NCBI GenBank assembly: GCA_029856125.1
Contig: JAHQWJ010000152.1
Coordinates: 1-64,000, forward strand
Origin: Promethearchaeia archaeon
GTDB taxonomy: Archaea; Asgardarchaeota; Lokiarchaeia; Sigyniarchaeales; SOKP01
Length of the DNA stretch: 64,000 nt
Direction of reading: 5' to 3'
The notes under the pieces were generated by a model. The model was given only the letters and a program-made list of their open reading frames with translations. It had not been told where the DNA came from and searched no databases. Of the stretch, positions 18,849 to 62,780 are shown piece by piece. Position 1 is the first letter of the stretch. Every line of letters starts with the position of its first letter. The translations under genes were made by a program, and so were the position numbers.

Positions 18849-19250
18849 TTAGTCTCTATTCAAATCTTCGCCATCAACAGATCTCTTATTCTTAACATTT
18901 AACACAAAACCATTAATTCTTTCCGCTACTGTTTCTAGTAATTTGTTCTTCTCTAAAATTTCCTCCCTTAGTTGAGATTCTACTTTAGTTGGTGAGGAAG
19001 TTTGCTGAGTGTTTCTTAGGGTTTGCATTAGTTTTTTAGACCTTTTTTCCGCAAAGAAAAAGCCAAAATCCGTTATTTCTTCGACCATACGACCTCGACA
19101 TAGAAGTAACAAGTGCTTTAATTCTTTTCCACCGATTTTTCCCTCTGTAAAGTTTCTTATCGCAATCTTGAGCTCTTCTAATTCATCATCATTGAAGATT
19201 ATTTTTTCTACTACCTGTTCAAAGTTTGCTAGCTCTTGACTCTTTTCCAT
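18849..19250 (-). CDS. small helical/coiled-coil protein, last gene of the ATPase operon
   Basis: Start overlaps the ATPase stop (TAATG). Confidence 0.7.
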   Translation of the reverse strand: MEKSQELANFEQVVEKIIFNDDELEELKIAIRNFTEGKIGGKELKHLLLLCRGRMVEEITDFGFFFAEKRSKKLMQTLRNTQQTSSPTKVESQLREEILEKNKLLETVAERINGFVLNVKNKRSVDGEDLNRD

Positions 19251-22200
19251 TAAATCCCCCCCAAATCACCCTCAATGTATTGTCTGAAACCATCAAATAT
19301 CGTGGAATACATTTCGAAGGCATTTTTACAAGTTTCAGCTACATTAGCCTGGTCTCTTACTTCAATCTTTTCACATGAAGTTAAAAATTGCTTTAGATCA
19401 TCCGCTGTAAACGGAAACCCTTCGAATTTACCCAAATTTCCTATAAATTTACTAATATCTTCTGATGTTATAGCATAATTCACGCTGTAATATTCTTTGT
19501 AAACGCTGTGTAAAAATTTAGGGAATAAATCCCGGGCAGTCTTTATCACTTTCTCGTATTTTTTGTGGTTTAAGTTTTTGTGCATCGTAAAATATTCGTA
19601 ATATAGAATAGGAGCAAAATTTTTAGAGAGGGCACTTCTCAAATTAATAGGATTCAGTGACTCTTCTAGAGGAAGTTGGGTAGATTCCAGTTCCACCGGT
19701 TCGTAAGTGATGATCGAACTATCTCGGGAATCGTAATAGTCTTTTAAAACTCTTTGGTAATGTGGTCCGACCGCAAAAGAAGTTTGCATGGACTCCGAAC
19801 CGCTAGCTCTTCGGGGGTGAGTTTCTGTTAAATATTGTTTACTTACTAAAATACCAAAAACTTTGTCAATAATATCTTTCTCTCTCTGCTTTTCTTTAGT
19901 AATTTTTACTATGTAAGGTTTCAACACTTCTTGAAGTTCTTCTCTCACTTTTTTTTTGTAAAGATTACCTACTTTATCAACCGCTTGGATGTTGTTTAAA
20001 AATTTAATGATCCCTTCTATTAAATCGCTATAACCGGCAAAATCGCTTTCAAACAAGGTAGCTTGTGCCCTTTTCATAATTTTATTCTTGGTTGTTTCTA
20101 AATCGTAGCCTTGCTTTTCCATGTAGCTCACGATCTCTTTCCATGATAAAGGTTTAGCTAGCTGTAATTCTTCGAAGTCAAGTTGTACAGGGAAAGATTG
20201 GTATATGTCCTCTCGTTTCACCACCGCCTGGTTTTGTTTCATCGCTCCGATGTATCTCGTCTGATATCCTTCGTTCCTCCGACTGCTATAGTAGCCGACC
20301 CCGTGCAGGTTCTCTAAATTCATCTGTCCGTTGAGCACTGCCACATCTCTTTTATCGGATGTTCGAAAAGTTACAATGTTATTGATGTAATTAAACACAT
20401 TCGGGTGTAAATACCTTATTTGAGAAGCAGAAGTTAATGTTCCAAACCCTTTATCAACTAATGGCGAAAAAAACTTGTCGATCTTGCCATATTGAATTTT
20501 TTTGTCTAAGAAAAAACCGTCAAAAACTACGTCAATGTGTGGTATTACAATAAATTTTGGAGTAAACTCTTCTCCAATCTTCAAGTAGTGAATCATTTTA
20601 GACAATACCACAAACGCAAAAAAGCACTGTTTGTCGTAATCTCTTACTTCTGAGAGGTCTATAATCACTGTTTTGTCGTTCGTTATGAACTCGTGCGCTT
20701 GCGCAGAGTTTAGTGTTTGAGGTTGTTGACGTTGAATAAACGAAGACTCTTGTGGAGTGAACTCCTTAAAAAAGGATAATAATGTTTCCGTGATTGAAGA
20801 TTTCTCCCAGTCTCGTTGCGATGTTAAATCTAACACGAGCGTAGAAATGTCAATGTCGGGATTTCGAAGTATGGTGTTTTTAAAGGTTTCAATGGTCCGT
20901 TCATCTTTCTTAAAACACAACGCGTACGCGTCAAACATATAGTCTAAATAGGCAGGATTGTTTTTATCGTAGGGTATTTCCGAACGAAGCGGATTGATCA
21001 CGATAGTTTTTCCTAATTTGTGGTAGATAAACTGATTTTCGTAGATAGAGCCTTGAAATATTTTTATAATCTTTGACCAATTACCCGTAAAATCGAACAC
21101 TACCGAAGGATAACCTGCTCTAACCAGTTCTACTACGATTTTCTGCGTTAGGAATTCTCGGCTAGAATTTGTACCGTTAGTGACTATTAAATTACGTACT
21201 TGGTCAAATAAAAAACCTGCAGGCGCCTCGTTTTCTAAATATTCTGTATTAATAGTGGAGCCAACAGTAATCTCGTTTTTTAATTGTAAGGGTGTATTGA
21301 ATTCTGCTGCTAACTGCGTTTCTATTCCTTTTTTAAATAGATTGGAAATCGTGGTTAAAATTCCTAAAGTTTTCCCTTGAAACAGCAAATAATTAAGATG
21401 CGTACCGTTCCTTCTGAAAAATTTGTTCTTGAGAGTTTCAAATATTAATCCTGATTCTAGTAAATTGTTCCTCAACGGTTTTATCATATAATTCATAAAA
21501 TTATTCCCAAACGCAGCTTCTAAAACGGTGAATTGCTGTACTAATCGTCTTTCGATTGCGTCCATAGTTTCGTATGTGAACGAGGGCGAGTTAGATACGA
21601 CCGAAGTAGAATAGGTAGCAATCGCGCTCCAGATACCTGCCTTTTGCTTGAGCCAATTTTCACGTTGTACAGGAATCTTTCTGCGTTCTAATAAGTAAAA
21701 TTTTTCTATTTCTGTTAAATATTCAAATCCTTCCTCGTCAAATTTTTCGAAGTTTAAGGGTCCTAACTGGAAAGTAACCGTAAATGGCATCCCTTCTTTA
21801 ATTAGAGATTCGTAAAACTTATCGGGATTACAATATGGTGGCGGACTACAAAAATAGAGGTTTGCCATTTTAATCCCTCCAGTGCTTTTTCCTTCTATCT
21901 GGTAAAAAATGATTTCAGGCGTTTTTCTAGACTTGAAAAACTCTATATTATCAAAAGGATCAATTACGCTAATCTCTTTAGATTTGAAAAGTTTACCTTT
22001 CGACAACTGAAAGAACAATTCCTGCCACCATACGATTAATAAGAAAAAAATAATTCCGATATTGAGTAAAAACCTATAAATTAAAGGTAAATTGAAAAAC
22101 AATAGCGATAAATCTAATAATATTACTAACGCAACGATGTAACTCGCTTTTGCAATAGAAGCGCTTAATTTAGGGCGTACGGTTTTACATGTGACTATTT

Positions 22201-61579: not shown

Positions 61580-61610
61580 TTTATTTGAATAATTATTTTT
61601 CAAATTCCAA

Positions 61611-62780
61611 GTGAAGAGGAAACTAATGAATATAGGAGACGATTTTATTACTTCAGAATTTTTACACTTGCTGTTTTTTGAGCAAAAGAATTTGGTTATA
61701 TTTCCCTACGTCGATTTGAAACACCTTAGGTCTGTGGATTTGTTTACAGTTGGTTTTGATACAGTAGATATCGATTCCACGGCTATCCATAACTTAAATG
61801 AGATAATTGAGTACGAGTGTAACAATTCCTATTCTCAACTGCAAACACTTTACTTCATACTCAACCCTTCGCTCGAAGAACTCGAGATATTAGTGGATTC
61901 CCCTAAATTAAGGTGCGTTATCAACTCAAAGCAGAACGTAGAAAGTTTAGCAAACGGGTATCAGTTCGTTTTTTACAACAAAAAATCTAATACTTTCTTA
62001 AATTACGAGTTTGAAGGAAGAGATTTATCTTTTGAAGAAGAGATACTACGAACTTCTCCTACCACACAAGCAATCGTGGACGAGCTTCTTAAAATTAAAA
62101 GCGTATCTTCTAAAATATTTGTTGAGCTAAATCAAAATGGTAGTCCCGATAATCTTCCCGAAATTCTTGCGGAATACAACCAGAAATATTGGAATAAAAT
62201 TCTTCGGTTTACTAAATTGTATTACCAAATAGAGATCCCGAAGTTTAATCGCCCTATCCAATTACCTAAGAAGAAGAGTTCAGGTAAAGAGATCGACTAC
62301 TCAGCAGAGTATGAGTTAATTATTAAAACCAATCGAAAAATAGGAAGATCGTTTATTCAATTAATCCACGATTATCGCTACGACAGAGTCAACCCTGCAA
62401 ATTTAGAAGTGAACCAACTTTTCTATCCTCAGAAACTTTACAATTACCTTAGGAATCATCATTGGAAAAACGGGATGCCAAAAGAGTTCGTAATTACTTG
62501 GTTCAAAATCACCACGAAAGATTTTATAGATCCCGAAGAGGCGTTAATGGAATTTCAGGTAATGCTAAAAAAATTGCGTTTATCCTATTCTGTTAGCGAG
62601 ATAGATTTAGAACGTAAAAGCGAACCAGAAAAAAAGGGATGTAAACAAGGTGAAAAACCAGATCCTATACCAATCATAAATCAACCGAGAAAGACAACGG
62701 CTATTCCTTCAACCGATAATTTTCCTGAGTTCAAAAAGTGGTTATTAAACAAATTGAACGAACTTGAAAAAATCGTGTAA
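61611..62780 (+). CDS. hypothetical protein, third gene of the roadblock-GTPase operon
   Basis: 389-aa ORF, no motif recognised. Confidence 0.7.
   Translation: MKRKLMNIGDDFITSEFLHLLFFEQKNLVIFPYVDLKHLRSVDLFTVGFDTVDIDSTAIHNLNEIIEYECNNSYSQLQTLYFILNPSLEELEILVDSPKLRCVINSKQNVESLANGYQFVFYNKKSNTFLNYEFEGRDLSFEEEILRTSPTTQAIVDELLKIKSVSSKIFVELNQNGSPDNLPEILAEYNQKYWNKILRFTKLYYQIEIPKFNRPIQLPKKKSSGKEIDYSAEYELIIKTNRKIGRSFIQLIHDYRYDRVNPANLEVNQLFYPQKLYNYLRNHHWKNGMPKEFVITWFKITTKDFIDPEEALMEFQVMLKKLRLSYSVSEIDLERKSEPEKKGCKQGEKPDPIPIINQPRKTTAIPSTDNFPEFKKWLLNKLNELEKIV

Follow-up and report, generated by a model that had tools for sequence, protein, structure and literature searches.

Why would an archaeon keep, beside membrane proteins related to DNA-transfer machines, a second set of recombination enzymes and a transcription factor B (TFB) variant of its own? 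We studied this question in a 64,000-nucleotide stretch (the window) of contig JAHQWJ010000152.1 (C152 in our numbering), part of a 3.69-Mb metagenome-assembled genome (MAG) whose host belongs to the Promethearchaeota and is a Loki-type Asgard archaeon, as a first-pass annotation of the same DNA had supposed. Here an island of ∼44 kb joins such enzymes and membrane proteins to the TFB variant (TFBx) and a near-private promoter (Table 1); conserved yet dispensable, it resembles a DNA-exchange programme that can be switched on. Open reading frames (ORFs) and profile matches confirm every gene that the annotation had named, in place, and the radA, fen1, rpa, hef, hel308 and tfb genes are extra paralogues rather than sole housekeeping copies, the genome holding elsewhere two RadA, one FEN1, RPA, two Hef, one Hel308-like helicase and seven canonical TFBs.

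The promoters provide the first part of an answer. Some 18 sites heading conserved core units between 24.7 and 60.3 kb carry an element that consists of a T-tract, then C (or G), then the TATA box TTTAWA (TTTTYC-TTTAWA). Its strict form, TTTTYCTTTAWA, occurs 12 times in the window compared to 0.94 ± 1.07 times in shuffled sequence, with 0 of 100 shuffles reaching 12, and every one of these matches lies upstream of a gene and in the same orientation; genome-wide there are 99, of which 12 fall within 24.7 to 60.3 kb. By position weight matrix (PWM), 15 of 37 unit heads inside the span score at least 15, compared to 12 of 2,632 outside it, a number equal to that of the antisense control (12); because the PWM was trained on the same island sites (leave-one-out scores, 10 to 20), the independent motif tests weigh more. 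The "atypical" promoter of the first-pass annotation is thus rare genome-wide, and the word rests on this rarity because the housekeeping TFB recognition element (BRE) has a consensus of weak A-richness at most, from crude ORF calls and not mapped. The housekeeping radA, fen1, hef, hel308 and nurA genes and the canonical tfb genes lack the motif (scores of −4 to 9.5), with rpa borderline at 9.5. That nearly all genes share the promoter, as had been claimed, holds for the conserved core units but neither for the passenger genes (radical SAM/methyltransferase, cupin, aldo-keto reductase, and sulfite oxidase-like) nor for tfbX itself, whose own promoter lacks the motif, likewise in nearly all orthologues; this absence is expected if tfbX is the upstream switch. 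In orthologues of other genera, the motif often lies 34 to 44 nucleotides (nt) before the start, and it stays with them despite gene shuffling (G033 and G038). Homologues of a motif-bearing gene that lies outside the island (C78:3054-3773) are located in or next to the islands of MK-D1, G021, G022, G033, G066, and G090. The alternative that unrelated genes cluster by chance, and that an AT-rich, terminator-like tract was mistaken for a promoter, draws on a genome of 33% GC in which T-tracts end genes, but is hardly credible given the shuffles and a motif that is strand specific, at a fixed distance, present in divergent intergenic regions, and kept in orthologues. We are therefore highly confident, from sequence, that the motif-bearing units form one regulon. 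The sole RNA run of MK-D1 gave a flat depth of 340 to 358 over 20 kb, probably DNA background.

What could read this promoter? TFBx has 425 amino acids (aa), with a Zn ribbon (four invariant Cys present), a short B-reader, two cyclin repeats, a helix-turn-helix (HTH) with an altered BRE-reading helix, and a C-terminal extension of ∼100 aa. Its predicted model superimposes on the core of Pyrococcus woesei TFB (1d3u_B, by Foldseek) with a TM-score of 0.80 and a root mean square deviation (rmsd) of 3.5, the tail being unresolved, and TM-scores against TFB/TFIIB structures (PDB 1D3U and 1AIS) are 0.77 to 0.80 at 16 to 17% identity. Judged by this model, Zn ribbon, two cyclin repeats and C-terminal HTH identify TFBx as a member of the TFB/TFIIB family, with which it shares the ribbon and repeats and from which it differs in the shortened B-reader, changed recognition helix and long tail; it scores 16 against an NCBIfam cutoff of 384 bits. 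In the tree, TFBx proteins form a single clade (support, 100/100) that follows genera, with copies from one genome mostly sisters. Canonical TFB reads the BRE through one C-terminal helix (PDB 1D3U). This helix reads MST[IV] in the window's family, ASTV in MK-D1 and Lokiarchaeum ossiferum, and VTE[VA]T in 7 of 7 canonical TFBs, and the islands of MK-D1 and L. ossiferum have no family 1 motif and carry instead the variant TTYGHTWTWAWA, found at 7 of 34 island heads versus 0 of 48 flanking heads (at −34 to −36) and, in the second species, at 6 of 11 versus 0 of 49. A third family 2 locus (L173) has similar T-tract/TATA promoters by eye. BRE helix and promoter variant appear to change together between the two families, a correlation that is the best evidence for TFBx as reader of the motif, a role that we predict as probable. 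Set against it, the covariation spans two families only, and the pattern for family 2 was drawn by eye from these very loci, once the data had been seen. Lineages without TFBx showed neither the family 1 nor the family 2 motif, and Gibbs sampling returned no common motif in them, a weak negative since the sampler also missed the MK-D1 motif. Islands of genus g2 (L065:13135-13833 and L106:10253-10951) encode a second TFBx of 232 aa, which lacks the N-terminal part and has the motif upstream (score, 11.3).

If the regulon is real, is it maintained as a unit? TFBx was found in 93 and homologues of the 1257-aa membrane protein (hereafter the pump family) in 92 of 117 family genomes. Both are missing from 15 genomes compared to about six expected, an excess inflated by kinship and incomplete MAGs, and 12 of these 15 also lack the island RadA and Hel308, yet keep housekeeping RadA. 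This block absence extends to several genomes that are >95% complete. Near-complete islands occur in G038, G133, G109, G022, G021, G066, G090, G126, G055, G033, and G073, synteny reaches across 8 genera from three families, and the cultured carriers are Promethearchaeum syntrophicum MK-D1 (DSAG12_02162 region) and L. ossiferum (NEF87_003786). Together, synteny and shared absence bear out the suggestion that these genes are co-conserved with the TFBx clade, and ratios of nonsynonymous to synonymous substitutions of 0.03 to 0.24 in 24 of 24 island genes tested show purifying selection. The picture of a unit is weakened by absences from MAGs that may reflect binning loss, by kin that are not independent, by L. 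ossiferum, where 1.2 Mb separate tfbX and fen1 from the main block, and by three relatives with orphan tfbX copies. A mobile or recently domesticated conjugative element with its own TFB and recombination functions could also account for the patchy distribution, the two or three copies seen in G109, G033, G133, and G038, the VirB4 fold described below, and flanks that differ between genera. We consider such an element decidedly improbable: (i) no integrase was found in or near the island in a search of tyrosine (not serine) recombinases, the genome's one tyrosine recombinase being on C132; (ii) no border tRNA was found in 16 regions scanned; (iii) no polymerase, primase, or capsid gene was recognised; (iv) GC content is 34.4% versus 32.7%; and (v) in the trees of TFBx and of RadA, branching goes by genus and copies from one genome mostly group together.

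A smaller core, comprising the pump homologue (whole or split), Hel308, RadA, the RadB-like ATPase, FEN1, and the Zn-ribbon gene, forms clusters, frequently a single block with all genes in one orientation, in other families of the Loki class, Freyarchaeum deiterrae, Thorarchaeia, and Baldrarchaeia. Of the Thor-family genomes, 23 of 25 encode a pump family protein, as do 5 of 5 Freyr-family genomes, whereas TFBx was found only in two Promethearchaeales families and the core of Thor-, Freyr-, and Baldrarchaeia stands without it. On our reading, the gene core is older than TFBx, being operon-like in other Asgard classes, and was brought under TFBx control in Promethearchaeales. The RadA tree holds too few housekeeping rows to show the island RadAs of all classes as one clade. 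Families f12 to f17 mostly gave no match for the core, but G146:C44 holds RadA, a Hel308-like gene and a weak pump match within 14 kb, so that absence there does not follow. The G220 match was rejected as a pump family member, being an ordinary HerA with Walker A, as were proteins P0066 and P0067 as island parts, since they lie in unrelated loci. Across classes, the most constant neighbour of Hel308, RadA, and FEN1 is the pump homologue. This association argues against a general DNA damage response regulon in which the membrane genes are incidental, as does the restriction of the motif, absent from the housekeeping repair genes and no more frequent at outside heads than in the control. Such a regulon would fit the fact that all enzymes come from repair families and that TFB3 governs a damage response in Sulfolobales (PMC6101594); we regard it as improbable.

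Is DNA exchanged, then, and by which machine? The cytoplasmic domain of the 1257-aa protein has a confident predicted fold (predicted local distance difference test score, 86), and its model matches HerA, VirB4, and TrwB structures with Z scores of 20.8 to 23.7 (VirB4 4ag5, Z 23.4, rmsd 4.4, 332 residues aligned; HerA 4d2i, Z 23.1; TrwB, Z 20.8). The relation is seen by structure only, as a PDB sequence search with the full pump alignment found nothing. Several family members end in a C-terminal winged helix. For the VirB4/HerA-like membrane operon of the first-pass annotation, the fold holds, but the protein lacks Walker A. The Walker A Lys and Ser/Thr are lost in 20 aligned orthologues and ∼130 representatives and kept only in distant matches outside the family; Walker B residues are also missing in the 1257-aa protein, and the motifs are degenerate in all aligned orthologues. 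Judged by its motifs, the family cannot bind ATP, and since none of the Asgard members examined retains Walker A, the protein appears to be a long-conserved pseudo-ATPase. The pilin-sized hairpin proteins are present as claimed, the 74-aa and 127-aa proteins being conserved hydrophobic hairpins and the former fitting a pilin in size and two-transmembrane (TM) layout. Homology to the CedA1 or VirB2 pilins was not found: PDB profile searches, by sequence only, matched neither protein to a pilin among solved CedA1, TedC, and VirB2, and an atlas search with the 74-aa protein returned its own cluster only. Even the pilins of Ced and Ted cannot be recognised as related from their sequences (PMC9905601). 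A CedA/VirB6-like channel with 6 to 7 TM helices did not appear in the hydropathy scan (core genes have at most 4, the DUF998 protein 5), and no pilus ATPase was found in the island. The dead ATPase and the failure of these searches to detect a pilin match, channel or pilus ATPase count against DNA exchange.

The same observations feed a different explanation, that of a developmental programme inside the cell, be it dormancy, asymmetric division, or remodelling of the envelope. The cell would tether its own chromosome to the membrane for repair or partitioning, with TFBx acting like a sporulation factor, the M50 protein as a regulated intramembrane protease, and MglAB as a polarity switch. A dead ATPase suits a tether better than a pump, pilin and channel are not proven, and one regulon takes in the helix-hairpin-helix (HhH) anchor, MglAB, a pair of GNAT-like genes, and the M50 protease, whose HExxH is intact. 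However, two signal-anchored surface proteins and the pilin-sized hairpins point outward, a full strand invasion kit exceeds what tethering needs, the block is missing from several >95% complete genomes, and the nearest active relative of the pump lies in a pilus locus, so that we hold a developmental programme to be rather unlikely. That relative, a membrane HerA/VirB4-like ATPase of an archaeon and the nearest with Walker A intact (E value of 1e-16, one locus; L171:3272-12362 in GCA_029259355.1), shares its locus with a divergent TFB, a DUF1922 gene, a pilus ATPase, and TadB/C-like and pilin-like genes, and offers one weak lead to an ancestor that may have actively moved DNA. We favour a TFB-switched programme of DNA exchange and recombination because the strand invasion kit is accompanied across several classes by proteins that face outward, an HhH anchor in the membrane, and the fold of a conjugation ATPase, and because housekeeping repair genes are outside the regulon; that its purpose is exchange between cells we put at even chances.

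Such a programme, chromosomal and acting on DNA at the cell envelope, could work as follows. A signal would induce tfbX from a promoter of another type. TFBx, together with the TATA-binding protein, would then read the T-rich BRE beside a normal TATA box, as the sequences support, and switch on ∼18 units together in the style of an alternative σ factor. Surface proteins, hairpins, the HhH anchor, and the VirB4/HerA-fold pseudo-ATPase might form a complex for cell contact and DNA passage, with the dead ATPase as ring or scaffold and MglAB perhaps positioning the complex; force would have to come from Hel308, Hef, or RadA. Going by known family functions, the private RPA, RadA, RadB, Hel308-SWIM, Hef, and FEN1 would cover single-stranded DNA, carry out strand invasion and branch migration, and trim the products. 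Clustering, paralogy, selection, the motif, the folds, and the dead ATPase are observed; we infer that the units are induced, that TFBx binds, that a complex forms, and that DNA is transferred at all, let alone in which direction. The bolder version, in which a machine that is ancient and Asgard-wide exchanges DNA between cells and recombines it, with a scaffold derived from a domesticated conjugation ATPase, and a dedicated full-length Loki TFB with its own BRE code drives an inducible parasexual state, is tentative and, in our estimate, doubtful.

Two known systems resemble this arrangement in their working, but the island is a member of neither. As in TFB3-Ups-Ced, a membrane protein of VirB4/HerA fold and small hydrophobic proteins accompany a TFB paralogue, and there is a link to homologous recombination. 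TFB3, which controls the DNA damage response of Sulfolobales, is truncated, lacks the HTH and specific DNA binding, and has a coiled coil, whereas TFBx is full length, with both cyclin repeats, a rewired HTH, and a matching promoter, so that the proposed TFB3 analogy is not supported at the protein level (PMC6101594). Moreover, radA is TFB3 independent in Sulfolobales, whereas the island radA carries the motif; the island's targets lie in a cluster, with duplicate recombination enzymes among them; and CedB is regarded as the powering ATPase, whereas its island homologue has lost the Walker motifs. Ced and Ted are domesticated conjugation machines with a CedA/TedA channel, a CedA1/TedC pilin, and a CedB/TedB ATPase (PMC9905601). 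The island shares with them a chromosomal VirB4-fold protein and small two-TM proteins, and with Ted the clustering of repair genes, although these are HerA, Rad50, and ParA in Ted and Hel308, RadA, RadB, and FEN1 here (PMC9905601). Ced and Ted need ATPase, channel, and pilin (PMC9905601); the island, whose ATPase is dead, is not counted among them, and neither a 6- to 7-TM channel gene nor pilin homology was recognised in it. The second parallel is one of logic, with one alternative initiation factor over envelope DNA-handling, HhH, single-stranded DNA (ssDNA)-binding, and recombinase genes. In bacterial competence (ComX/SigX), an alternative σ factor couples envelope DNA handling, an HhH DNA receptor, an ssDNA-binding protein, and a recombinase. 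The island differs in having no recognised ComEC, ComGA, or DprA, an archaeal basal machinery, and a dedicated recombinase paralogue.

Catalytic motifs are intact in RadA (Walker A and B; PF08423, 237.8 bits), the RadB-like protein, FEN1, Hel308 (Walker, DEIH, and CxC/CxH motifs), Hef, and MglA, as in the M50 protease. The SWIM-type Cys/His finger of the Hel308-like helicase (28300-28750) is conserved in 15 family orthologues, with the RadB-like gene in the same regulon. The first-pass annotation saw a bearing on the prehistory of eukaryotic sex, which our data do not uphold: the island RadA scores 181 bits against both human RAD51 and DMC1, compared to 255 and 229 for housekeeping RadA (a score comparison, not a tree), and is thus not the closer of the two, and the RAD51/DMC1 duplication has been placed after the split from sampled Asgards (PMC12722695). 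A direct line from the island to meiosis is not supported by these sequences, and the tie to eukaryotic sex is weak. The start codon of island radA (47499-47501) is probably ATT, as also in G109:C20, with ACG in G103:C32 and ATG, GTG, or TTG in others. In three relatives' copies (G109 C49, L093:10190-10290; G109 C12, L095:13155-13255; G103 C32, L145:7440-7540), island radA contains at the same codon a 31-nt insertion that is absent from the window's gene, shows two 3-nt bulges around a 4-bp helix (a bulge-helix-bulge shape), and restores the frame exactly when excised. It is a candidate archaeal mRNA intron, with a folding energy not above that of shuffles.

Table 1. Features of the island in window coordinates, with the position of the promoter motif and the basis of each assignment
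Feature	Position	Strand	Motif	Basis
133-aa helical protein, final gene of five-gene membrane operon (18849-26570)	18849-19250	-		stop/start overlap with 1257-aa gene; order conserved
1257-aa 4-TM protein with HerA/VirB4/TrwB-fold domain, pseudo-ATPase	19250-23023	-		structure comparison, motifs, TM scan
284-aa protein, 2 C-terminal TM	23032-23886	-		conservation, TM scan
250-aa protein, 3 TM	23883-24635	-	24688-24704	conservation, TM scan
621-aa protein: N-terminal HhH, acidic linker, 2 TM	24705-26570	-	26596-26612	PF14520, E 1.9e-10
Hel308-like SF2 helicase with SWIM-type Cys/His finger	26793-29318	+	26712-26728	Pfam DEAD, Helicase_C, Helicase_dom4_arc
Three small proteins (93, 90, 79 aa)	29375-30400	+	29334-29350, 29656-29672	conservation
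Unit: 191-aa protein, Hef/FANCM-like helicase (740 aa, 30904-33126), DUF1922-type Zn-ribbon protein (185 aa)	30343-33715	-	33738-33754	
987-aa surface protein: signal anchor, alpha/alpha toroid, C-terminal TM	33789-36752	-	36807-36823	PF00432, E 1.9e-14
TFBx, divergent full-length TFB	36936-38213	-		profile matches TFIIB/TFB; fold; clade
Unit: M50-type membrane metalloprotease (38886-39653), 116-aa TM protein, RadB-like RecA-fold ATPase (40004-40717)	38886-40717	+	38842-38858	
Passenger insertion: methyltransferase/TPR, radical SAM/SPASM; not conserved; then radB 3'-end copy (95 nt, 43781-43875)	40737-43549	-	none	
126-aa Cys-rich protein	44571-44951	+	44533-44549	conservation
Island RadA, C-terminal HhH; probable ATT start 47499	47499-48734	+	47426-47442	PF08423, E 1.4e-70
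108-aa Zn-finger protein and 345-aa surface protein (50198-51235; signal anchor, C-terminal TM)	50198-51551	-	51588-51604	
74-aa two-TM hairpin protein, pilin-sized	51846-52070	+	51807-51823	
127-aa three-TM protein	52092-52475	-	52510-52526	
Second FEN1/XPG nuclease, acidic catalytic motifs kept	52931-54031	+	52893-52909 (weak)	
218-aa conserved protein	54073-54729	+	54037-54053	conservation
Second RPA (OB folds)	54818-55747	+	54758-54774	
DUF998 five-TM protein, in some relatives' islands	56913-57587	+	56840-56856	TM scan
Unit: MglB-like protein, MglA-like GTPase (MglB/MglA 60353-61579), 389-aa protein	60353-62780	+	60285-60301	

The island extends beyond the window to two GNAT-like genes at 67.0 to 70.3 kb of the contig (L001:5043-8334), one of which has a top-scoring motif; the pair accompanies the island even in MK-D1 and G006. 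Left of the island lie paralogues of its small genes (Cys-rich 126-aa and 90-aa families) at 13410-13796, 791-1006, and 3110-3310, the first with a weak motif. On either side of the methyltransferase/radical SAM insertion, which is absent from G109:C20, the 3' end of radB occurs as a direct repeat of 95 nt (81%; 40628-40722 and 43781-43875). No fold or family was assigned to the 345-aa surface protein, for which a weak lead to PPC scored under 0.8. A paralogue of the 987-aa toroid protein (L130; G000 C126:259682-266323) faces a gene for a 1117-aa protein with the top motif score of the genome, 20.6. The older MK-D1 record has paired accessions for island RadA (QEE16310/QEE17759) and the pump homologue (QEE16332/QEE17732), which suggests that the region was duplicated in the first assembly.

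The island is real, conserved, testable in two cultured species, and apparently undescribed, the literature that we searched containing no description of it. It addresses two standing questions: how Asgard archaea exchange genes, and whether TFB paralogues select promoters in the manner of σ factors, which has long been open, TFB1 and TFB2 of Thermococcus showing no promoter selectivity (PMC6101594). With a named factor, a predicted site that changes with the recognition helix, and a list of targets in two cultured species, both questions become directly testable. If the bolder version given above is true, TFBx would be a real archaeal counterpart of an alternative σ factor.

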